Shown here: in pieces, positions 27,289 to 47,260 of the stretch
Numbering within the stretch: position 1 is the stretch's first letter
Layout of the letters: each line of letters begins with the position of its first letter
Assembly: GCA_965261395.1 (NCBI GenBank)
Contig: OZ253462.1
Span: 6,240,001 to 6,304,000, forward strand
Reading direction: 5' to 3'
Source: Candidatus Latescibacterota bacterium
GTDB lineage: Bacteria > Latescibacterota > UBA2968 > UBA8231
DNA: 64,000 bases
Position numbers and translations under genes: made by a program
Notes under the pieces: model-generated
What the model was told of the DNA's origin: nothing
What the model saw: the letters and a program-made list of their open reading frames with translations, nothing else
Databases searched by the model: none

Positions 27289-27828
27289 ATGGCCGCTAGC
27301 TTCAAGGAAATGACTGGATTTTTCAGGGAAATTGGTGCTGCCGACGTAGGGCATACCAACAAGACCTACTTGGCCCACTGCATCGGCGTGTACGGCGATA
27401 TGAAGAAGTGGGGAGGCGACGATGTGATGTGCCATGCCGCGCTCTTTCACTCCATATACGGCACCGAGCTGTTCCAAGATTTCGCTCTACCTGTTGAGCG
27501 CCGCGACCAAGTGCGGGCACTGATCGGCGAGCGGGCCGAATACTTGGCGTACGTCAATTGCGCCATGGTGCGCGATACCTTTGACGCCGCTGTGGAGCAG
27601 CACGGTGTTCCCTACGTGCTGCAAGACCGCTTGACCGGCAATCCCATCGAGATGACCGAGCAGGACTTCAACGACCTAGTAACGATTCACCTGTGTGACT
27701 GGCTGGAGCAGGTGGCGCGGTGGGGCCAATGGGACTATCGCCGCGAGGCATTCGAGAGCATGGCGCAGCGCTTGGGTGGCATCGCCGAGGAGCGGTTCGC
27801 CGAGGTTTTTGCTGGCCGCCTCAAATAG
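27289..27828 (+). CDS. DUF6817-like (HD-like) protein
   Basis: GH..KTYLAH, AALFHSIYGTE, VRALIGERAE and DWLEQ motifs; RBS aggagg. Confidence 0.75.
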   Translation: MAASFKEMTGFFREIGAADVGHTNKTYLAHCIGVYGDMKKWGGDDVMCHAALFHSIYGTELFQDFALPVERRDQVRALIGERAEYLAYVNCAMVRDTFDAAVEQHGVPYVLQDRLTGNPIEMTEQDFNDLVTIHLCDWLEQVARWGQWDYRREAFESMAQRLGGIAEERFAEVFAGRLK

Positions 27829-27839
27829 ACAGTGGTTAG

Positions 27840-27990
27840 GGGACTTTGATCTGTCCGGCCATAAAACCCAACCGACGAGACGCCGCCGTTTGGTCAGCTC
27901 GCTTGCGGACGAGGGTTTTGAGGTAGCCCCGGACCAATGCCGACACGGATGTGCCCAACTCCGCCGCCCGAATGCGGGCGAGCCGATGGG
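27840..27990 (-). pseudogene. Internal fragment of the antitoxin gene at 33771-34016
   Basis: Near-identical to about 33832-33982. Confidence 0.75.
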
Positions 27991-27996
27991 TCTCTC

Positions 27997-29550: not shown

Positions 29551-29569
29551 TTCTCCTTGGGTCGGTCCC

Positions 29570-29669
29570 TCAGACCGCTTGGATGGGGCCGGGATGGCAG
29601 GAGACGGTAATGTTTTTCACGTTCATCGCCTTGCAGATGCTGTGTTTTACAGTGTATGGATAGGGCGAT
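29570..29669 (-). pseudogene. Fused remnant of vapC 3' end and antitoxin 5' end/promoter
   Basis: Matches 33673-33704 joined to about 34000-34065. Confidence 0.7.
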
Positions 29670-29926
29670 TGGTGTGCAACGGCACCACATCTGACCAGCC
29701 GCCATACATACATCTACTTGACGAGTAATCACATCGGCGATCTTCCCTAGCAAGACGCCGAGCGGTTCGCCGAGGTGTTCGCGGGCCGTCTTAAATAGGT
29801 ACAGTGGTCAGTAGTTAGTAGAGTAGAGCTAGGTCGCGGGGCACAGCCCACTGGACTGGCCAGACGCTCAATCAAATTGATTGGGCATTGAGGTCGTAGA
29901 GTTTGATGGCTTCGTCGCTGGTCCTA

Positions 29927-31366
29927 CTAGCCAGCAGCCTCGGCAGCAGCCGAAAGTTTTGCTACGTCAAATTTTGCGCCGTTAATGGTTATCGTCCCTG
30001 TAGCATAAAGGCCGTCGGCATCGACCGAAAACTTCATATCGAGTATCAACTCGGCCTCATGCGATCCAGAAAGGGTAACCTCTCCGCTCAGCGGAATGGG
30101 CGTCTGATCCAAGCCGACACTCAAGGCTCCGTTGACTATCAGCTCGCCATCGGGCGAATAATCCTGCAACGTCCAGTCGTTGTCGGCGATTTCTACTGAG
30201 CCGCCGCCCCGCCCTGGCACCGACGTCGTACCGGGAACCAGCGCGGAGAAGAAGATGTCCGTAAGACTGGAGACCAACGTGCTGTATAAGCCAATGATTT
30301 CAGGCGTTATCTCGACCGCAAAGCCCGGCCCGCTTTCTTCGACGTGGATTTCGATTTCCGGCGAGACGAAATCGGCATGGCCTCCGTGGTTGATTTTGAT
30401 GCGGATGGTGGTCTGGCCTTCCGCTAGGCCGATGATGTGAAAAGCCCAAGCATTGTTCTCGGCGTGATGTTCGACGTCGGCGATGCTCTCGTCGGTAATT
30501 TCCCAGTCAAGGGCGTAGTCATCGTCTTCGTCTGGGGTAAAGAGATCGCCGTCTTCGGCGATAAAGCGCACGGACAACAGGGCCGTTTTCAAGCCGTGGC
30601 CGACCTCAATCTCGCCGGTCACCTGACCGCTTTCAACGCGCACGATTTCAGTGCCGCTATCGCGTACAATCAGGCCGATGGCCTCGGCGTGTTCTTCTTC
30701 GTGCTCGGTATCGACGGGGGTGTTGTCAACACGCTCATAATCATCGTAGTAGTAGCCTCCATCCCCAGACTCCCACCCTAAAGCAAGCCAACCGTCAAAC
30801 ATCTTTATTTCATGGTCCCAACTCGGCCGAGTCTTAGTCTCTATCTCATCAAAGACCCGTAAATCCAGCAGCTCCAGCGTTTTTTCCCCTTTATACTCTT
30901 TCGTTTCTACGTCCCACATTCGGAAATAGGTTCCAATATGGTTGAATGCCCACTTACCACCGTCCGCATAGTACACGCCCATTTTACCGCGTCGCTCGCT
31001 ATAAAGGCTGGGCAAACCCAAATCGGCAAGTGCTGGATCATCCCAATCAGATGGGGAATAATACGAAAGCAGCGTGTAGTCGTAATACGTTACGCCCGGT
31101 TCGCCCGTTGGATTTGGGTCGGGCGCAAGCTCTATCCGCAACGTGTCCGCGGTCGAGATGTACTCACTGCCCCACCCATCACAGGCTGGACAATCAACAC
31201 TAAACCGACCCTGACCTGACCATGTACCCGCTATGCCCAAAATCGGCATCGGGCATTGTTCGGCCACAGCCTCGGTACGCTTGGCGGCACTAGGCGAAGT
31301 AGGACGGCCTACGTCACAGCCTAAGAAAACGGCGAAAGCGACAAGGGCTACGGTTACTTTATGCAT
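29927..31366 (-). CDS. Chimeric lipoprotein with His-rich middle domain
   Basis: Lipobox VFLGC; HEEEHAE, HHAE and HGGHADF segments. Confidence 0.7.
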   Translation of the reverse strand: MHKVTVALVAFAVFLGCDVGRPTSPSAAKRTEAVAEQCPMPILGIAGTWSGQGRFSVDCPACDGWGSEYISTADTLRIELAPDPNPTGEPGVTYYDYTLLSYYSPSDWDDPALADLGLPSLYSERRGKMGVYYADGGKWAFNHIGTYFRMWDVETKEYKGEKTLELLDLRVFDEIETKTRPSWDHEIKMFDGWLALGWESGDGGYYYDDYERVDNTPVDTEHEEEHAEAIGLIVRDSGTEIVRVESGQVTGEIEVGHGLKTALLSVRFIAEDGDLFTPDEDDDYALDWEITDESIADVEHHAENNAWAFHIIGLAEGQTTIRIKINHGGHADFVSPEIEIHVEESGPGFAVEITPEIIGLYSTLVSSLTDIFFSALVPGTTSVPGRGGGSVEIADNDWTLQDYSPDGELIVNGALSVGLDQTPIPLSGEVTLSGSHEAELILDMKFSVDADGLYATGTITINGAKFDVAKLSAAAEAAG

Positions 31367-31384
31367 GGTTAATCCCCTTTGGAC

Positions 31385-31469
31385 GTGGGTGAGTTTCAGC
31401 GGCTGTGATCGCCGCAACCTGCGGCCAGCAGCCATCGAGATAGGCACAGGGCACAAAAAAGGGAGTGGG
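31385..31469 (-). repeat. Conserved leader repeat R1 (R2 = 32109-32122 plus 32875-32950)
   Basis: Aligns with the spliced flanks of the group II intron; both copies lie upstream of minus-strand cargo genes. Confidence 0.7.
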
Positions 31470-31531: not shown

Positions 31532-32083
31532 TTACTTCGGCGTACATTTGAGAACTTGATCGACATATAGCGGATCTTTCGACACGGCAGCACCGTCCTC
31601 CTCCCCCAAACTTTTCATAAATGCAAGCATCTCATTATCTATCGCTGTCGGCTTGCGCCAAGTGTTATCTACCACCTTGCCGCCGGCAAGTGCCATAACA
31701 TGTCTAGGAATTTCGATCAAATAGCCGGCCGGGTCATCTGGCCCAGCATGAGACTCAAGCCATGTTTCAAGAAGTTGGTGCGCCCAAGAATACTCGACGT
31801 TGAAAAATTGCCTGAGAATGGGGCTGTGTTCGTGTTTGTCTGTGAAGAGCACTCTTTCATCGAGAATTTCGGCGGCCCGCTTTTCCCCAAAATGGGCGAC
31901 CATCCGTTGCGCAGTGCCCGATTCTACTCTTTTAGACATTATCTGTGCGGCCATGTCGCCAGTGGAAAGCCCTGTCAGGGCAGATAGGGAGCAAACGCCG
32001 CAACCTTTATGTCTGCCGTTGACCGAGTGGAGCTTTACAGCTTGTTCTAGGTCGGGGGAATTGATAGAATTACGGAAGACCAT
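31532..32083 (-). CDS. Hypothetical protein, possible papain-like (Cys/His/Asp) fold of phage/MGE type
   Basis: GCGVCSLSALTG..HVMALAGGKVVDN; RBS aaggag. Confidence 0.55.
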   Translation of the reverse strand: MVFRNSINSPDLEQAVKLHSVNGRHKGCGVCSLSALTGLSTGDMAAQIMSKRVESGTAQRMVAHFGEKRAAEILDERVLFTDKHEHSPILRQFFNVEYSWAHQLLETWLESHAGPDDPAGYLIEIPRHVMALAGGKVVDNTWRKPTAIDNEMLAFMKSLGEEDGAAVSKDPLYVDQVLKCTPK

Positions 32084-32122
32084 CGACCGTCTCCTTTCGA
32101 TTGGGGTAGTGGGTGAATTTGA

Positions 32123-32874
32123 GTGCGACCTGAAAGTCGCTTAAGATGAGTGAAGCAATGCTTCTGGTCCAGTGTATAGGACCATTGCCAGTCTCCCATG
32201 CGTTCTGAGTAATCAGAAGGTATGAAGCGGAGATGAAAAGCCCAATGCCAAGTAGTCGTAAACCGAAGCAGGGCAAGGCAAAGACCGAACGGGTGAACGA
32301 AAGTGAATCTATGCAAGCCTCGTCAACCCAGCCATCGGCTAAGCGGCTAATGCCGATGTATGAGCCATACGTGAACAATGGATTTCAAACGCCACTATGG
32401 ATACACCACCGGCTCCGGGGTATAGTAGGCACCCAACCCGGTCACATCTCACTTATGCGGAACAGGAAAACCCCAAAGAGGTCTGCGTAGGCAGTAACTC
32501 AACCGCAAGGAAGGGCTAACTCCTCCGTGGGAGCAGGATGCCACAAGAAGCGAATGCCATCAACTGAAAAGTAAGGGGAACACATAACCCGATGGATAGG
32601 GCATTGCCCAACTCGAAAGGGTGCTGACGTGTGGCAGGTGAATCGACCTTGAACATGGATTCAAAAGACTTGAATCAGATACCGATGCGCAGTGCGTATC
32701 CTATAATGGAAAACGTGAGCAGAATATCTGAAGGATACCCTAAAGTCTGGAGGAAACCTGACGAGGAAGCGGGAGCACAAGCTTCAGCCCGGTTTGCTTG
32801 AGCCGTGTGCGGTGAAAGTCGCACGCACGGTTCTGAGGGGAGGGGGACGTGGCGACATGTCCCCCTTACCCGAC
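32123..32874 (+). ncRNA. ORF-less group II intron (IIB-like), 752 nt
   Basis: 5' GTGCG; domain V gagccgtgtgcggtgaaagtcgcacgcacggttc (32800-32833, AGC triad, GAAA loop); domain VI hairpin with bulged A, ending cccGAC; short domain IV and no RT ORF. Confidence 0.9.
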
Positions 32875-33003
32875 ACTTTAGCGGCCGCGATCGTCGCGAC
32901 CGGTGGCCAACAGCCGTCGAGAAGGCACAAAAGAAAAAAAAGGTAGTGAGATAATCCCTTAAAAAAGGTTTCCGTTAGACTCTTAGAGGCCGAGTCGGTT
33001 CGG

Positions 33004-33561
33004 CTATTTTAATCCTAGATCTTCCAGTATATCTTTGAAAGGTTTGTGTCTTCGGATCCCCTGAATTACTCTATCCATTTTATCGCTCCACTGATCTCGT
33101 GGATATTTATTGATCTTCCGAAATAAGTTAGCAAAGCTTCCAATTGAACAACCGTAACGGTCTTCAATTACAAAGATAATGAGTTCGATAAGACGGTCCC
33201 ATCCGATGACACTACTTATAATTTCTTGATACTTGATATAGCTGGATAGGTGTTTTATATCTTTATCGCGGAATCCAAATTTGTTGGCAATCTGAAGGTG
33301 GGTTTGATTCCAGTCTAACTGTCCTCTGATATGAAGAATCATCATTCGTTGAGAGTCTTTGAGGTTATGTGGTTCATTTAGAAAACGATAGAATTCTCGT
33401 TCTTCATCCGTTTTGGCGTTTTCATACAGATCATGCTTGCGAGCCTCCTCTTTTAGTTTTAGTCCTCCTAGCGCGCCTAAAATTTTGGGATGCTGAGCAA
33501 GCATTCGTTGAGATTCTCTTAGGTCGTTCTTTGTAACATCAGATATTTCATATTTAGACAT
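33004..33561 (-). CDS. AT-rich hypothetical protein
   Basis: 185-aa ORF; RBS aagggag; composition visibly more AT-rich than the host genes. Confidence 0.65.
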   Translation of the reverse strand: MSKYEISDVTKNDLRESQRMLAQHPKILGALGGLKLKEEARKHDLYENAKTDEEREFYRFLNEPHNLKDSQRMMILHIRGQLDWNQTHLQIANKFGFRDKDIKHLSSYIKYQEIISSVIGWDRLIELIIFVIEDRYGCSIGSFANLFRKINKYPRDQWSDKMDRVIQGIRRHKPFKDILEDLGLK

Positions 33562-33637: not shown

Positions 33638-33672
33638 GGCGATTTAGGGGCGAGTAGAGTTTTGCCGGTTCG

Positions 33673-33774
33673 TCAGACCGCTTGGATGGGGCCGGGATAG
33701 CAGGCCACCTTGTCGTCCGTGGTAAACAGCGTAACGTTTTCGACTTGTGCTTGCGCGATCAGCAATAAAGTCAT
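33673..33774 (-). pseudogene. vapC: Internally deleted VapC/PIN toxin (33 aa)
   Basis: MTLLL joined directly to IAQAQVENVTLFTTD..YPGPIQAV, i.e. PIN N- and C-termini fused; ATGA overlap with the antitoxin. Confidence 0.75.
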
Positions 33775-34016
33775 GCGTTCCCCCCGAACATCTTCTCTAT
33801 CCCCGGTCCGCCCATGCTGTCGAAGTCGTCGGGAACTTTGATCTGTCCGGCCATAAAACCCAACCGACGAGATGCCGCCGTTTTGTCGGCTCGCTCGCGG
33901 ACGAGGGTTTTGAGGTAGCCCCGGACCAGTGCCGATACGGATGTGCCCAACTCCGCCGCCCGAATGCGGGCGAGCCGATGGGTTTCTTCATCTACAGATA
34001 CGGTGATGTTTTTCAC
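33771..34016 (-). CDS. Antitoxin, RHH-type N-terminus with VapB-like tail
   Basis: KNITVSVDEE..ARIRAAELGTSVSALVRGYL..RRLGFMAGQIKVPDDFD; GTG after aaggag. Confidence 0.8.
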   Translation of the reverse strand: MKNITVSVDEETHRLARIRAAELGTSVSALVRGYLKTLVRERADKTAASRRLGFMAGQIKVPDDFDSMGGPGIEKMFGGNA

Positions 34017-34087
34017 GTTCATCTCCTTGCAGATGCCGTACTTTACAGTGCATGGATAGGGCGATGCCGAGGTTTTTGCTGGCCGCC

Positions 34088-35584
34088 TCAAATAGATACT
34101 GAAAACAGCTTGGCTTTGTACAGGTGAAAGCGGAGGCCGACGTTTTCGCCTGCTAGGGCCGATAAGTCGGCACGGCCCCGCCAGCGCGCCGCCTCGGAAA
34201 TGGAATCGCCGGTGAGGGAATCGGCCTCGGCGAGCGAAAAGCCGGGGTGGGCTTCTACGGGCTGGGGAGGCGTGTGAATGGTCTGGACGATTTCGGCTTT
34301 GATCCAGCCGTCCGGGGCCGTGCGAAAGTTGAGCAACAGTTCGCGGCCGCAGCAGGGCCGCTCGATGAGCGTGACCCGCCCCTCGCCTTTGGCCTCTATC
34401 CCCGCGAGCCGATCCGGTTCCCAACAGGCCCAGCGAAATTCCCCATCCTCGGGGTACGACGCGGCGCCGCGGCGGAGGAAGTCGTGGCGGCGTTGGTAGC
34501 CTCTAAAAGGCAGCCGCCAAGTGCCGTTGGCAACGATGAGATTCGGGCTGGCGTAGAGTTGGCCATACGTTCCCCCCTCATAGGTGCGGTCGATGATGGG
34601 CTGGCGGAAGGGCCGGATCCATTGGTGGTTATCGTAGCTGACCGCGAGCTGGACATCGACCGTAGAGGCGATCCGATGATATATCGACGGAAACATCAGG
34701 TAGCGCGGCTGCGTGCCGGGGTACGGCGTGTAGCAGGGGTTGTAGATGTCGTCGTCGAGCGCGTCCAAGGGGTCGGGCAGGAGGCAGGGGCGCGGCTCGG
34801 CCAAGGCTGCAAACTGCGCGCCCGCGACGCGGCGCACCAAGCGCCGGCGGCCGATGTTGCCGCGCAAGTACGCCACATATTGCTCCTGGTGAGGATCGTA
34901 AATGCAGAGGTTGTGGGTGTCTAGCTGGGTTGCGCCGGCGTCGAAGACGGGCGCGCTGAGGTTGTGCCAGTGGATGCCGTCGGCAGAGGTCGCGCCGAGG
35001 AGCTGCTGCCGAATCTCAATCCCTCGCGCCTTTTCTCCGGCCGACACATCGCCCAAGTCGCGGGCCGCGAGCAGGGCCTTGAAGCGCGCGGAGTCCATTT
35101 CCGGGTCGGGCTGGCCGTCGCGGAAGTAGTGCGCCCCCGGGCCGACGGCCTTGTAGCGCTCGGCCGCCGGGGCACTGGGGTCGATGAATACCCAGCCGAG
35201 GGGATGGTCGCGGCCCGCGCTGAGGATGTTGTTGCAGGTAGAGCCTTCGTACTCGCACAATCCCAACTCCGGTCGCTGCCAAGTAAAGCCGTCGTCGCTT
35301 TCGGCGTAGCAGACATACGAGCGCGAGATGTCGTCCAAGCGTTGCACGCCGTACCAGAGGCGGTAGCGCCCTTCGTCGTGGAGCATGGCGTTGACGTGAA
35401 GATTGGCTCCTTGCTCCCAAGGGCGCTCCTTGTGGAAGAAGACCGCGGACTTACGCGCCAGCTCGGGCACGAGTTCAATGCCTTGGGGCGGGTCCTGCGA
35501 CCAGACGGTGCCGTCGTCTTCGAGCTTGCGGTGGGAGGGCCAGATGCCGTACCAGTCGAGGAAAGGCGTGGGTTGGGGTTGCAT
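34088..35584 (-). CDS. Five-bladed beta-propeller glycoside-hydrolase-like protein
   Basis: YRLWY..CYAESDDGFTWQRPELG, SADGIHW, DTHN and DVQLAVSYD motifs. Confidence 0.7.
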   Translation of the reverse strand: MQPQPTPFLDWYGIWPSHRKLEDDGTVWSQDPPQGIELVPELARKSAVFFHKERPWEQGANLHVNAMLHDEGRYRLWYGVQRLDDISRSYVCYAESDDGFTWQRPELGLCEYEGSTCNNILSAGRDHPLGWVFIDPSAPAAERYKAVGPGAHYFRDGQPDPEMDSARFKALLAARDLGDVSAGEKARGIEIRQQLLGATSADGIHWHNLSAPVFDAGATQLDTHNLCIYDPHQEQYVAYLRGNIGRRRLVRRVAGAQFAALAEPRPCLLPDPLDALDDDIYNPCYTPYPGTQPRYLMFPSIYHRIASTVDVQLAVSYDNHQWIRPFRQPIIDRTYEGGTYGQLYASPNLIVANGTWRLPFRGYQRRHDFLRRGAASYPEDGEFRWACWEPDRLAGIEAKGEGRVTLIERPCCGRELLLNFRTAPDGWIKAEIVQTIHTPPQPVEAHPGFSLAEADSLTGDSISEAARWRGRADLSALAGENVGLRFHLYKAKLFSVSI

Positions 35585-42463: not shown

Positions 42464-45400
42464 ATGAAAAAGACCTTGCTGGCCAGCATTGCCTTGTTGG
42501 CCAGCGTCCTGTTTGTGCCGGCCATTCACGCCCAAGACGAGCCACTTACCCGCTTGAATTTGCCCGAAGGTGCGCTCGCCCGCTTGGGCAAAGGCCGCAT
42601 CGGTTCGGGCGACCGGGCGGTGACCCATTCGCCGGACGGTACGCGGCTGGCGGTGGCCGGCGGGATTGGTATCTGGCTCTACGATGCGCACACCGGCGAC
42701 GAAGTCGCCCTGCTTACGGGACATACGGATAGGGTCACTTCGGTGTCGTTTTCGCCGGATGGGACGACCATAGCCAGCGGCAGTGCGGACGAGACAGTAC
42801 GGTTGTGGGAGGTGGCCAGCGGCCAAGAAAAGGCGACTCTCGCAGGGCATACGTCTTCGGTTACTTCGGTGTCGTTTTCGCCGGATGGGACGATCTTGGC
42901 CAGTGGCAGTGCGGACGAGACAGTACGGTTGTGGGAGGTGGCCAGCGGCCACGAAAAGGCGACTCTCGCAGGGCATACGTCTTCGGTCGCTTCGGTGTCG
43001 TTTTCGCCGGATGGGACGACCTTAGCCAGTGGCAGTGCGGACGGCACGGTACGGTTGTGGGAGGTGGCCAGCGGCCACGAAAAGGCCATCCTGAGAGGGC
43101 ATACGGATGATGTCGCTTCGGTATCGTTTTCGCCGGATGGGACGATCTTGGCCAGTGGCAGTAGGGACTGGACGGTACGGTTGTGGGAGGTGGCCAGCGG
43201 CCAAGAAAAGATCACCCTTGCAGGGCATACGTATTGGGTCTATTCGGTATCGTTTTCGCCGGATGGGACGACCTTGGCCAGTGGCGGTGGGGACGAGACG
43301 GTACGGTTGTGGGAGGTGGCCAGCGGCCAAGAAAAAGCTACCCTGAGAGGGCATACGTGGGCTGTCCTTTCGGTGTCGTTTTCACCGAATGGGACGACCT
43401 TAGCCAGTGGTAGTTTGGATGGCACGGTACGGTTGTGGGAGGTGGCCAGCGGCCAAGAAAAGGCGACTCTCGCAGGGCATACATATTGGGTCTATTCGGT
43501 GTCATTTTCACCAGATGGGACTATCTTGGCCAGTGGCAATGGGAACCGGACGGTGCGATTGTGGGAGGTGGCCAGCGGCCAAGAAACAGCCACCCTCGCA
43601 GGGCATACGTCTTCGGTTACTTCGGTGTCGTTTTCACCGGATGGGACTATCTTGGCCAGTGGCGGTGCGGATGGGACGGTGCGATTGTGGGAGGTGGCCA
43701 ACGGCCAAGAAACAGCCGCCCTCGCAGGGCATACGTCTTCGGTTACTTCGGTGTCGTTTTCACCGGATGGGTTCACCTTAGCCAGCGGCGGTGCGGATGG
43801 CACGGTACGGTTGTGGGAGGTGGCCAGCGGCCAAGGAAAGGCCATCCTCGCAGGGCATACGGATGGGGTCTCTTCGGTATTGTTTTCGCCGGATGGAGCT
43901 GCCTTGGCCAGCGGCAGTGCGGACGGCACGATCCTGCTGTGGGAAGTGGCCAGCGGCCACGAAACAGCCACCCTCGCAGGGCATACGGATGGAGTCCTTT
44001 CGGTATCGTTTTCGCCGGATGGGTTCACTTTAGCCAGTGGTAGTGCGGACGGCACGATACGATTGTGGGAGGTGGCCAGCGGCCACGAAACAGCCACCCT
44101 CGAAGGGCATACGTCTTCGGTTACTTCGGTATCGTTTTCGCCGGATGGGTTCACTTTAGCCAGTGGTAGTGCGGATGGGACAGCGCGGTTGTGGGAGGTG
44201 GCCAGCGGCCACGAAACAGCCACCCTCGAAGGGCATACGTCTTGGATCTATTCGGTATCGTTTTCGCCGGATGGGACGACCTTAGCCAGTGGCAGTGCGG
44301 ACGGCACGATCCTGCTGTGGGACATGGAACCCTACATCATTTATACCCGCTTGAATTTGCTCGAAGGTGCGCTCGCCCGCTTGGGCAAAGGCCGCATGGG
44401 TTCGGGCGACCGGGCGGTGACCTATTCGCCGGACGGTACGCATCTGGCGGTGGCCAGCGGGATTGGTATCTGGCTCTACGATGCACACACCGGCGACGAA
44501 GTTTCCCTGCTTACGGGACATACGTGGGCTGATGTCCTTGCGGTATCGTTTTCGCCGGATGGGGCTACCTTGGCCAGTGGCAGCGATGACGAGACGGTAC
44601 GGTTGTGGGAAGTGTCTACCGGCCAAGAAACAGCCACTCTCGAAGGGCATACGGATAGGGTTTATTCGGTATCGTTTTCGCCGGATGGGACGGCCTTAGC
44701 CAGTGGCAGTGCGGATGGCACGGTACGGTTGTGGGAGGTGGCCAGCGGTCAAGAAAAGGCCATCCTGAGAGGGCATACGGATGGGGTTTATTCGGTATCG
44801 TTTTCGCCGGATGGGACGACCTTAGCCAGCGGTAGTAGGGACCGGACGGTACGATTGTGGGAGGTGGCCAGCGGCCAAGAAAAGGCTACCCTCGAAGGGC
44901 ATACGTCTTCGGTCACTTCGGTATCGTTTTCGCCGGATGGGACGACCTTAGCCAGTGGCAGTTGGGACGCCACGGTACGATTGTGGGAGGTGGCCAGCGG
45001 TCAAGAAAAGACTACCCTCGAAGGGCATACGTCTTGGGTTTATTCGGTATTGTTTTCGCCGGATGGGACGACCGTAGCCAGCGGCAGTGAGGACGGCACG
45101 ATACGATTGTGGGAAGTGGCCACCAGTCAAGAAAAAGCCAGCCTCAAAGGGCATACGGATAGGGTTTATTCGGTGTCGTTTTCGCCGGATGGGACGACCG
45201 TAGCCAGTGGTAGTAGGGACGGCACGCTACGGTTGTGGGAGGTGGCCAGCGGCCACGAAAAGGTCAGCCTCAAAGGGCATACGTCTTGGATCTCTGCGGT
45301 ATTGTTTTCGCCGGATGGGGCGATCTTAGCCAGTGGTAGTGCGGACGGCACAGTGCGGTTGTGGGAGGTGGCCAGCCGCCAAGAAAAGGCTACTCTGAGA

Positions 45401-47260
45401 GGGCATACATCTTGGGTCACTTCGGTATCGTTTTCGCCGGATGGGGCTACCCTGGCCAGCGGCAGTGAGGACGGCACGCTACGATTGTGGGAGGTGGCCA
45501 GCGGCCTAGAAAAAGCCACTCTTGAAGGGCATACGGATGGAGTCCTTTCGGTATTGTTTTCGCCGGATGGGGCTACCCTGGCCAGCGGCAGTGCAGACGG
45601 CACGCTACGATTGTGGGAGGTGGCCAGCGGCCTAGAAAAAGCCACTCTTGAAGGGCATACGGATGGAGTCCTTTCGGTATCGTTTTCGCCGAATGGGGCT
45701 ACCCTGGCCAGTGGCAGTAGGGATGGGACGGTACGGTTGTGGGAAGTGGCTAGCGGCCAAGAGAAGGCTACCCTGAGAGGGCATCTGTCTTGGGTTTTTT
45801 CGGTATTGTTTTCGCCGGATGGGACGACCTTGGCCAGTGGCAGTGCGGATGGGACGGTACGATTGTGGGAGGTGGCCAGCGGCCTAGAAAAAGCCATCCT
45901 GAGAGGGCAAACGTCTTGGGTCCATTCGGTATCGTTTTCACCGGATGGGACTGCCTTGGCCAGTGGCAATGGGGACGGTACGATCCTGTTGTGGGACATG
46001 GCACCCTACATTACTCACACCCGCTTGAATTTGCCTGAAGGTGCGCTCGCCCGCTTGGGCAAAGGCCGCATCGGTTCGGGCGACCGGGCGGTGACCTATT
46101 CGCCGGACGGCACGCGGCTGGCAGTGGCCGACGAGACTGGTATCTGGCTCTACGATGCGCACACCGGCGACAAAGTCGCCCTGCTCACGGGGCATACGGA
46201 CGGGGTTTATTCGGTGTCGTTTTCGTCGGACGGGACGACCTTGGCCAGTGGTAGTGATGATGGCACGGTACGGTTGTGGGAAGTGGCCAGCGGCCAAGAA
46301 ACAGCCACCCTGAGAGGGTCAGATAGGGTTTATTCGGTGTCGTTTTCGCCGGATGGAACTACCTTGGCCAGTGGTAGTGATGATGGCACGGTACGGTTAT
46401 GGGAGGTGGCCAGCGGCCAAGAAACAGCCACCCTGAGAGGACATACGTGGCCTGTCCGTTCGGTGTCGTTTTCGCCGGATGGAACTACCTTGGCCAGTGG
46501 CAGTGTGGACCGGACGGTACGGTTGTGGGAGGTGGCCAGCCGCCAAGGAAAGGCCACCCTGAGAGGGCATACGGATGGGGTCTATTCGGTGTCGTTTTCG
46601 CCGGATGGGTTCACTTTAGCCAGTGGCAGTTGGGACGGCACCGTACGGTTGTGGGAAGTGGCTAGCCGCCAAGAAAAGGCTACCCTCGAAGGACATACGT
46701 CTTCGGTCTATTCGGTATCGTTTTCGCCGAATGGGAGGACCTTAGCTAGTGGCAGTTGGGACGGCACGGTACGGTTGTGGGAGGTGATCAGCGGCCAAGA
46801 AAAGGCTACCCTGAGAGGGCATACGGATGGGGTCTATTCGGTATCGTTTTCGCCGGACGGGACGACCTTGGCCAGTGGTAGTGCGGACAGCACGATCCTG
46901 CTATGGGACATGGCACCCTACATCACCCCCTCGGCACCGAAGGCCACTTACGCTTCGCCGCTGCCGGCGCAGACGGCATTGCTGGCCAACTACCCCAACC
47001 CCTTCAACCCCGAAACCTGGATTCCCTTTCAACTGCACGCACCAGCGCCAGTGCGCCTGAGCATCTACGATGTCCGGGGGGCACTGGTGCGGGAAATCGA
47101 CCTAGGCCATCGGGCGGCGGGCCGGTACCTAACGAGCGCCGGTGCCGTCCATTGGGATGGCCGCGATCAGATGGGCCAGCGGGTCGCCAGCGGCGTGTAT
47201 CTGTATCGATTGCAGGCCGGCCCGATTGCTCAGGTGCGCAAGATGCTCCTCGTCAAATAA
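42464..47260 (+). CDS. Secreted three-module WD40 protein with FlgD-Ig/T9SS-CTD-like tail
   Basis: Three capped modules of 13, 12 and 6 WD repeats; [28 protein letters not shown] tail. Confidence 0.92.
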   Translation: MKKTLLASIALLASVLFVPAIHAQDEPLTRLNLPEGALARLGKGRIGSGDRAVTHSPDGTRLAVAGGIGIWLYDAHTGDEVALLTGHTDRVTSVSFSPDGTTIASGSADETVRLWEVASGQEKATLAGHTSSVTSVSFSPDGTILASGSADETVRLWEVASGHEKATLAGHTSSVASVSFSPDGTTLASGSADGTVRLWEVASGHEKAILRGHTDDVASVSFSPDGTILASGSRDWTVRLWEVASGQEKITLAGHTYWVYSVSFSPDGTTLASGGGDETVRLWEVASGQEKATLRGHTWAVLSVSFSPNGTTLASGSLDGTVRLWEVASGQEKATLAGHTYWVYSVSFSPDGTILASGNGNRTVRLWEVASGQETATLAGHTSSVTSVSFSPDGTILASGGADGTVRLWEVANGQETAALAGHTSSVTSVSFSPDGFTLASGGADGTVRLWEVASGQGKAILAGHTDGVSSVLFSPDGAALASGSADGTILLWEVASGHETATLAGHTDGVLSVSFSPDGFTLASGSADGTIRLWEVASGHETATLEGHTSSVTSVSFSPDGFTLASGSADGTARLWEVASGHETATLEGHTSWIYSVSFSPDGTTLASGSADGTILLWDMEPYIIYTRLNLLEGALARLGKGRMGSGDRAVTYSPDGTHLAVASGIGIWLYDAHTGDEVSLLTGHTWADVLAVSFSPDGATLASGSDDETVRLWEVSTGQETATLEGHTDRVYSVSFSPDGTALASGSADGTVRLWEVASGQEKAILRGHTDGVYSVSFSPDGTTLASGSRDRTVRLWEVASGQEKATLEGHTSSVTSVSFSPDGTTLASGSWDATVRLWEVASGQEKTTLEGHTSWVYSVLFSPDGTTVASGSEDGTIRLWEVATSQEKASLKGHTDRVYSVSFSPDGTTVASGSRDGTLRLWEVASGHEKVSLKGHTSWISAVLFSPDGAILASGSADGTVRLWEVASRQEKATLRGHTSWVTSVSFSPDGATLASGSEDGTLRLWEVASGLEKATLEGHTDGVLSVLFSPDGATLASGSADGTLRLWEVASGLEKATLEGHTDGVLSVSFSPNGATLASGSRDGTVRLWEVASGQEKATLRGHLSWVFSVLFSPDGTTLASGSADGTVRLWEVASGLEKAILRGQTSWVHSVSFSPDGTALASGNGDGTILLWDMAPYITHTRLNLPEGALARLGKGRIGSGDRAVTYSPDGTRLAVADETGIWLYDAHTGDKVALLTGHTDGVYSVSFSSDGTTLASGSDDGTVRLWEVASGQETATLRGSDRVYSVSFSPDGTTLASGSDDGTVRLWEVASGQETATLRGHTWPVRSVSFSPDGTTLASGSVDRTVRLWEVASRQGKATLRGHTDGVYSVSFSPDGFTLASGSWDGTVRLWEVASRQEKATLEGHTSSVYSVSFSPNGRTLASGSWDGTVRLWEVISGQEKATLRGHTDGVYSVSFSPDGTTLASGSADSTILLWDMAPYITPSAPKATYASPLPAQTALLANYPNPFNPETWIPFQLHAPAPVRLSIYDVRGALVREIDLGHRAAGRYLTSAGAVHWDGRDQMGQRVASGVYLYRLQAGPIAQVRKMLLVK

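Follow-up and report, generated by a model that had tools for sequence, protein, structure and literature searches.

The stretch of DNA analyzed here (64,000 nt, hereafter the window; positions 6,240,001 to 6,304,000 of contig OZ253462.1, assembly GCA_965261395.1, from a Candidatus Latescibacterota bacterium) carries a group II intron, Int1, between two small genes of the opposite strand, one encoding 183 amino acids (aa) and the other 185 aa (33004–33561, minus strand). The intron splits one copy, R2, of a repeat of ~60 nt that lies upstream of small open reading frames (ORFs) in this genus—the leader repeat—and a second copy, R1, stands uninvaded on the far side of the 183-aa gene. Int1 is a complete and genuine ORF-less group II intron and belongs to a type of bacterial mobile element that is known, though uncommon. 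We read it as a non-autonomous member of a IIB chloroplast-like lineage circulating in the genus, which would have entered the leader repeat by retrohoming, guided by pairing between its exon-binding sites (EBS) and the intron-binding sites (IBS) of the exon, with the protein supplied in trans. We give this explanation as a whole a probability of about 0.6.

The identity of Int1 is supported along its length. The Rfam model RF00029, which covers domains V and VI (DV and DVI), matched 32798–32874 on the plus strand from end to end (model positions 1–77 of 77; 68.1 bits, E = 2.8e-11), and RF02012 (group-II-D1D4-7) matched a piece of domain I (DI) at 32164–32255 with 39.3 bits against a gathering score of 34. 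Its termini—5′ GTGCGAC at 32123 and 3′ CCCGAC at 32874—agree with the group II pattern of 5′ GUGYG and 3′ AY, and termini of this type are kept in its relatives. Because the only ORFs of at least 60 aa that overlap Int1 measure 85, 89, and 102 aa, and because tblastn with the intron-encoded proteins (IEPs) of three relatives found no reverse transcriptase (RT) remnant in Int1, domain IV (DIV) included, we call the intron ORF-less. The sole tblastn match with E < 0.01 involved residues 1–47 of an over-long ORF in one relative (locus L041); these residues overlie ribozyme sequence, upstream of the RVT_N domain of the L041 protein. A sequence-only reading of the window had proposed just such an intron, with an intact 5′ end, DV, and DVI but no IEP, and had named RF00029 and the group-II-D1D4 models as a way to check it; both matched.

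Where exactly did the intron enter? The flanks of Int1 (5′ ..GGGGTAGTGGGTGAATTTGA, 3′ ACTTTAGCGGCCGCGATCG..) are the two halves of one repeat. In the sister genome G140 (genomes of the phylum have G-numbers, with G000 the present one, and loci in them have L-numbers) the orthologous locus reads GGGGTAGTGGGTGAATTTGA and then directly ACTTTAGCGGCCGCGATC, with nothing between. The 5′ flanks of the two genomes are identical at 155 of 163 positions (95%), and the G140 orthologue of the 183-aa ORF adjoins the empty site. This uninterrupted site therefore fixes both splice sites of Int1, rules out a target duplication, and dates the insertion (or, alternatively, an exact loss from G140) after the split of the two species. 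The uninvaded paralogue R1 reads TGGGTGAGTTTCA, in agreement with the TGGGTGA-GTTTCA quoted for it earlier. Six nucleotides of R2 are missing from R1 and occur in other repeat copies and in the G140 empty site (TTTGA-(A)CTTT(C)AGCGG), so R1 carries a deletion; a target-site duplication as the source of the extra 6 nt in R2 was considered and rejected on the same grounds.

The 5′ end of Int1 lies 39 nt upstream of the ATG (32083) of the 183-aa ORF, on the other strand, where the sequence-only reading had put an antisense insertion about 40 bp upstream of what it called a cargo gene, splitting R2. Because the intron is antisense to both of its neighbors, it cannot be spliced from their mRNA. Its 752 nt separate the 183-aa gene from the remainder of the repeat upstream of it, an arrangement that could change expression of the gene. 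The proteins encoded nearby, of 183, 185, 480, 498, and 206 aa, gave no meaningful match to any family of Pfam, NCBIfam, or PADLOC.

The intron family and its fold

How widespread are relatives of Int1? We searched 168 genomes of the phylum by BLAST with Int1; the genus accounts for 31 of these, including the present one. Matches were found in 18 of the 168 (the present genome included) and in 12 of the 30 other genomes of the genus. RF00029 recovered 17 DV/DVI copies in 11 of the 31 genus genomes; two of the 17 copies belong to a different intron type. Both ends could be defined for 12 relatives, a set that leaves out L038, which is ORF-less and truncated at its 5′ end. Among the ORF-less relatives, L035 (813 nt, in G140) looks intact, L039 measures 802 nt, L036 (790 nt) has a mutated 5′ end (GGTCG), and L037 (509 nt, in G143) begins with ATGCG and has an internal deletion of ~240 nt that removes its EBS region; L044 and L047 are ORF-less with large unrelated inserts. 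Relatives L041, L042, L043, and L045 (= L046) bear ORFs, and L040 (4158 nt) departs from the others within DI in a way that suggests disruption by an insertion. The sequence-only reading had suggested looking for siblings and an RT-bearing parent; siblings, some of them RT-bearing, exist in sister genomes.

The IEPs of L041, L042, and L045 combine RVT_N, RVT_1, GIIM, and HNH domains and pass TIGR04416, the NCBI model for group II RT/maturases. Their best relative of solved structure is the T.el4h maturase/RT (6ME0, E = 1.1e-120). We take T.el4h to belong to the IIB/chloroplast-like (CL) class, which places the intron family in the IIB chloroplast-like group. The protein features of the IIB/CL lineage (RT, maturase X, and a DNA-binding/endonuclease domain of HNH type) were recognized on the IEPs of the relatives, Int1 itself encoding none. 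Recent mobility of the family is evident from two RT-bearing copies at two sites in G145 (L045:4744-7136 and L046:4869-7261) that do not differ at any of their 2393 nt. The exon ends of these two copies pair with different DI loops, which points either to a relaxed choice of target or to an additional loop of the EBS1 type. Int1 itself is closest to L037 (77% identical across 415 nt and 80% across 66 nt) and is 68% identical to L035.

Several ORF-bearing and ORF-less relatives carry inserts of 410–670 nt within DI/DII that are mutually unrelated (L041:4266-4825, L047:1426-2041, L044:3685-4354, L043:3768-4178, and L042:6590-7010). Most relatives also have a TATAAC-like hexamer ~10 nt upstream (positions -16 to -11 in the 5′ exons of L035, L036, and L044–L047), which is partly explained by EBS2 pairing of the GGTTG type and also resembles a -10 promoter box.

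Does Int1 keep the fold of its family? An RNAalifold consensus of DI from eight members contains 78 pairs, 45 of them with at least one compensatory double change, and the consensus of DII–DVI from six ORF-less copies contains 104 pairs, 46 of them compensatory, with DV invariant. Every conserved helix of both folds is retained in Int1. Its DV agrees with the group II pattern of 34 nt with the AGC triad. The bulged A of DVI is the seventh base from the 3′ end of Int1 and the single unpaired A of the DVI consensus (Table 1).

The same folds locate the exon-binding sites. EBS1 of Int1 lies in the sole hairpin loop within the distal Id stem, and EBS2 lies in an unpaired stretch; the two positions thus fall on a terminal loop and an unpaired segment of a DI fold supported by covariation. 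The sequence-only reading had put both sites in the right places, and the folding of DI that it proposed as a check, together with the exons of the relatives, bears this out. In Int1, the TCAAA of EBS1 is complementary to five of the six bases of the exon end ATTTGA, and EBS2 forms 5 bp with TGGGT. Among the relatives, the aligned EBS1 loop matches its own exon end at 6/6 bases in L036 (TCGTTT/AAACGA), L041 (TGAAGA/TCTTCA), and L042 (CTGTAG/CTACAG), and at 5 bp, one G-U included, in L046. An anchored EBS1 pairing of at least five was found in 5/9 pairings of an intron with its own exon vs. 7% of pairings of an intron with a foreign exon. The homologous EBS2 stretch forms 6 bp with its own exon in each of L036, L039, and L044 and 5 bp in L035. 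That of Int1 forms at most 3 bp with the nine other exons, and its sequence differs from those of 9/9 compared relatives.

Table 1. Positions of Int1, its parts, and the features around it (window coordinates unless a contig is named; HMM, hidden Markov model)
Feature	Position	Strand	Basis and remarks
ORF-less group II intron Int1 (752 nt)	32123..32874	+	Rfam; full-length homology to sister-genome copies; empty site in G140
Domain I	32123..32466	+	Consensus fold of 8 family members; closing stem at columns 7-10/417-420
EBS2, ACCCA (AACCCA with 32325)	32326..32330	+	Unpaired stretch 3′ of the Id stem; pairs with TGGGT at 32110-32114
EBS1 loop, ATTTCAAACG	32382..32391	+	EBS1 is TCAAAC at 32385-32390; TCAAA pairs with TTTGA of the exon end
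Domain V (34 nt)	32800..32833	+	RF00029 alignment; paired columns invariant in 6 ORF-less copies
Domain VI, bulged A at 32868	32837..32871	+	RF00029 alignment; consensus fold with compensatory changes
IBS2 (TGGGT, 32110-32114) and IBS1 (ATTTGA, 32117-32122)	32110..32122	+	5′ exon; complementary to EBS2 and EBS1
Left half of repeat copy R2	32105..32122	+	Alignment with 20 other copies and the intact G140 orthologue
Right half of R2 (3′ exon)	32875..32921	+	nhmmer E 1.1e-11; BLAST to two other copies in the genome
Uninvaded repeat copy R1	~31383..31439	+	nhmmer E 7.1e-12; ~25 nt upstream of the ATG of minus-strand gene 29927-31369
183-aa ORF downstream of R2	31532..32083	-	ORF list; AAGGAG ribosome-binding site
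Distant repeat copies	G000:C1:813367-813444 and 6408087-6408149		HMM of the core

The leader repeat and the probable route of insertion

What kind of sequence did Int1 enter? An HMM of the repeat core found exactly four copies in the 6.55-Mb genome, a single contig: R1, R2, and two at a distance. A BLAST query with one copy matched 12 of the 30 other genus genomes and gave weak matches outside the genus within the family. Usually two to four copies stand 450–1050 nt apart at a locus (loci L065–L094), each preceding a small ORF of the opposite strand by 20–110 nt. The core consists of GGTAGTG, eight to nine variable bases, TTTGA, and then CTTTCAGCGGCCGCGATCGCGGCGACCGGCAGCCAGCAGCCG, and both IBS2 and IBS1 fall in the variable stretch. 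Collinearity of G000 with G140 holds on the left side of R2 and ends immediately right of its core, where the two genomes become unrelated; the repeat thus marks a boundary of exchangeable segments; between these two genomes it remains with the downstream gene, not with the upstream one.

A structured RNA was considered as the nature of the repeat and rejected, as neither strand gave a conserved fold (consensus energies -0.3 and -5.8 kcal/mol; covariation term close to 0). Read as a possible coding sequence, the repeat has weak codon periodicity (mean third-position entropy 0.85 vs. 0.70). One frame in gene sense is open in 22/22 copies (peptide GCWLPVAAIAAAE.Q..LP), and 11/22 have no start codon.

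Is the intron specialized on this repeat? In G143, L037, the closest relative of Int1, interrupts another repeat copy at the corresponding position (..GGTAGTGTATCCGTTTGA / intron / AAATTAGGCCGCGAT..), and its neighbors, a tRNA gene and other ORFs, differ from those of Int1. The two invaded repeats are of different subtypes (GTGGGTGAATTTGA vs. GTGTATCCGTTTGA, the latter flanking L037), with diverged 3′ halves. GTTTGA is the perfect partner of the Int1 EBS1, and EBS2 (as AACCCA) matches GTGGGT(T), a variant form found in several repeat copies. Repeat targeting by the Int1/L037 sub-lineage is plausible on these grounds.

Could a helper protein still be present? In G000 (one contig, 95.3% marker completeness) no GIIM match was found, and the single RVT_1 match lies in a second intron of another lineage that splits ssb (G000:C1:2311948-2315970; L006:5949-9967, minus strand). 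This second intron interrupts ssb after ~20 codons in sense orientation, and its IEP (RVT_1, Intron_maturas2, and an AI2M-type HNH) is itself split by a UPF0236-family transposase gene on the opposite strand. Should ssb be essential and present in one copy, its intron would need to splice with no intact maturase to help. A query with the cognate IEP found just this ssb-intron fragment in G000, at 38% identity, and no related, intact IEP-bearing intron of the kind that accompanies ORF-less introns in Thermosynechococcus elongatus was found in the same genome. G140 and G143, both single contigs, each gave one RF00029 match and no TIGR04416 match. These absences are to be read with marker completeness at 93–95% and with helpers that may have been lost recently.

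Because G000 has no cognate RT, and its single RT gene is split by an insertion sequence and belongs to another intron, we regard trans-mobilization of Int1 as past rather than current. Mobilization in trans by related IEPs, which the sequence-only reading had offered as the general rule, does not stand as a current process here, the RT-bearing relatives being confined to sister genomes. With the helper absent from G000, Int1 is probably immobile there at present. The empty site in G140 records an insertion event, and DIV contains no IEP remnant; Int1 may have been ORF-less already when it inserted, an order of events on which the family tree is too weakly supported to bear. ORF-less bacterial introns are described, in the review PMC4424553, as nearly always co-residing with related IEP-bearing introns, with C.te.I1 the sole known exception. 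Int1 and the G140 copy, both without a helper, therefore add to a list of exceptions that is very short.

Our preferred explanation can then be set out in steps. The EBS2 and EBS1 of the intron RNA would have paired with TGGGT..ATTTGA on the plus strand; reverse splicing would have inserted the intron after 32122 and before what is now base 32875; and a protein with RT, maturase, and HNH activities, encoded by a related intron and acting in trans, would have made the DNA copy, completing a retrohoming into R2. The helper protein would later have disappeared from the present genome, and Int1 would have stayed put.

RNA libraries, rival readings, and known systems

Is Int1 found as RNA? Six RNA runs (metatranscriptomes, labeled as from sponges) contain about one-quarter of the words found in 2.1 kb of sequence surrounding the intron, and four of these, from three studies, were compared as contigs. 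Each of the four yielded one contig (705, 698, 676, and 649 nt), all on 32118–32821, with 2–5 differences from the window and word depths of about 139, 95, 104, and 10; they all stop within DV, a part whose sequence is common to many other introns. Int1, or a copy at least 99% identical to it, is present in RNA libraries. Among the contigs listed, none extends 31 nt or more into either exon or contains the joint 32122>32875, and the flanking genes are nearly uncovered; the contig data weigh neither way on splicing. With a ribozyme that looks intact and its sequence in RNA libraries, Int1 is probably still transcribed and may excise itself.

Run X15 has an RNA-library contig with a loose end at 32874, in which a family-type DVI end (..CCCGAC) runs directly into an intron start, GTATGAACTTAAGTCGC... 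This junction comes from a relative rather than from Int1 and could be the junction of an intron circle, a tandem copy, or a twintron.

Several observations count against retrohoming into the repeat as we have described it. The pairing of Int1 with its own site is imperfect (EBS1 5/6, EBS2 5 bp), and among the four repeat copies of G000 its EBS sequences fit R2, partly R1, and no others. The aligned EBS1 loop has no convincing match to the intron's own exon in L035, L043, L044, L045, or L047. Because the exons of L039 and L045 match a neighboring DI loop instead, the EBS1 assignment is not uniform across the family, and for EBS3 no alignment column was complementary to the first 3′-exon base in all seven introns tested. 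Int1 is present in a single copy, L037 has lost its own EBS region, and the tree that bears on whether the ORF was lost once or several times has 1/10 branches well supported. A scan of the locus for promoters and terminators gave chance-level results, with three promoter-like sites on the plus strand vs. 2.5 expected. The RNA contigs are uninformative on strand, ends, and splicing and could include DNA, and their 2–5 differences mean that they may stem from another strain or copy.

Just 2 of the 15 family DV/DVI copies of the genus lie within the repeat, and 11 of the 12 relatives with a defined 5′ junction, whose EBS sequences differ, sit in unrelated flanks; one of these, L041, splits the gene of a solute-binding protein in sense orientation. 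The proposal that Int1 is a ribozyme specialized on a repeat family, which was to fail if siblings lay in unrelated flanks or if the EBS assignments collapsed on folding, therefore stands in part. L037 occupies the same position in another copy and the EBS assignments survived folding; on the other side, two insertions are known and nearly all siblings are elsewhere. A scan of metagenome contigs for intron-3′-end/repeat junctions returned at least 119 stretches, and none of the 80 examined was similar to Int1; the pattern is too unspecific to bear on further insertions.

The scatter of the siblings also gives weight to a rival account, in which Int1 is an inert relic without any repeat preference: its association with the repeat would go back to one old event that spread with the repeat copies, or to chance, and the RNA would be read-through or a stable by-product. 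Its single copy without a helper RT in G000, the decay of the G143 copy, and the mutated 5′ end of L036 all fit such a relic, and recombination could move units of repeat plus intron, given that the repeat marks differences in gene content where G000 and G140 diverge to the right of the core. Against this account stands the empty orthologous site of G140 with its 95% identical flank, which makes the G000 insertion a separate and fairly recent one, as well as the difference in subtype and in the 3′ halves between the two invaded repeats. An EBS2 that is unlike that of every compared relative and matches the GTGGGT(T) variant also counts against it, as does the retention of every conserved helix. 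On balance we find this account unlikely, and we prefer EBS/IBS-guided retrohoming with the protein supplied in trans.

Could the ORF-less lineage instead live on without any RT? Here, selection would maintain an autonomous RNA element, abundant in sponge metatranscriptomes, through maturase-free splicing or through a host role as a co-opted structured or antisense RNA at the leader repeat of exchangeable modules. G140 and G143, one-contig genomes with a family copy (one that looks intact, one decayed) and no group II RT, speak for this possibility, as do the lack of a cognate or intact RT in G000, the maintenance of the fold by compensatory changes in Int1 and L035 at 68% identity, the depths of ~95–139 reached by the RNA contigs in three of four runs, and the precedent of C.te.I1 in PMC4424553. 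Yet Int1 is intergenic and antisense, such that no host gene needs its splicing; the copies occupy non-orthologous sites in each genome, as those of a mobile element do and those of a conserved host function do not; L036 and L037 are decaying; the covariation may be inherited from times when a helper was present; and contig depth is a poor measure of expression. We regard an independent or domesticated ribozyme as quite improbable.

The integron offers a third comparison: the cores of attC sites follow the consensus GTTRRRY/RYYYAAC, and the introns of class IIC-attC, which enter such sites in antisense orientation, have a reduced DI and no EBS2. That the repeat is an attC site in an integrase-less array (CALIN) invaded by an intron of this class is suggested by the antisense orientation, by the small unannotated one-strand genes, low G+C, and antitoxin-like fragments nearby, and by repeat copies spaced 450–1050 nt apart at several loci, but it is very improbable and largely refuted already, since the repeat has no inverted R″/L″-L′/R′ boxes, attC cores, or conserved hairpin, does not exceed two to four copies per locus, and remains with the downstream gene, since no integrase family was found among the 46 scanned ORFs of the window, and since the DI of Int1 is of full size and includes an EBS2, in contrast to class IIC.

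How does Int1, read as a retrohoming intron helped in trans, compare with known systems? The ORF-less TeI introns of T. elongatus, as presented by Mohr, Ghanem and Lambowitz 2010 (PMC2882425), are likewise IIB-type ribozymes without an IEP that stem from an RT-bearing family, their target specificity diverges via the EBS, and they insert in repeated or non-essential DNA. The closeness of the T.el4h RT to the IEPs of the Int1 family is a further link. That study puts the helper IEPs in the same genome, with 28 copies, whereas G000, G140, and G143 each carry a single copy and lack a cognate helper; trans-mobilization of Int1 is also something that we infer, unlike that in T. elongatus. C.te.I1 of Clostridium tetani resembles Int1 in being ORF-less, with no usable IEP gene and a ribozyme that looks intact, according to PMC4424553; there it occupies a coding gene, in the same sense as that gene, and is documented to splice, also in alternative ways, whereas Int1 is intergenic, antisense, and known from sequence. 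Lineages recurrent in one sequence context, as Int1 and L037 are, include the groEL stop-codon intron EcKTE56.groEL (PMC12584367) and class IIC-attC and IIB integron-associated introns (PMC7923331). Those introns carry their own IEP and Int1 carries none; its context, moreover, is a genus-specific leader repeat, neither attC nor terminator, with two insertions documented.

Current understanding of group II introns is unchanged by these results. What the genus offers is a natural series, from RT-bearing copies (two identical ones in G145) through intact, helper-less ones (G000 and G140) to decaying ones (G143 and G125), together with a clean pair of occupied and empty sites. This series is suited to asking how long a ribozyme without a helper survives and whether it still splices. 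It also brings to notice an uncharacterized leader repeat, sited where sister genomes differ in gene content.

Two further features of the window deserve mention. Three partial repeats, 85–95% identical (27790–27995, 29563–29798, and 33666–34095), bracket the low-G+C segment that contains the intron, and each consists of the 3′ end of a DUF6817 gene, an ORF resembling ribbon-helix-helix (RHH) antitoxins, and a PIN-like C-terminal stub. The window also includes two very large WD40-repeat genes (20–2518 and 42464–47260), the second of which contains ~30 tandem units of 126 nt that are 78–91% identical.

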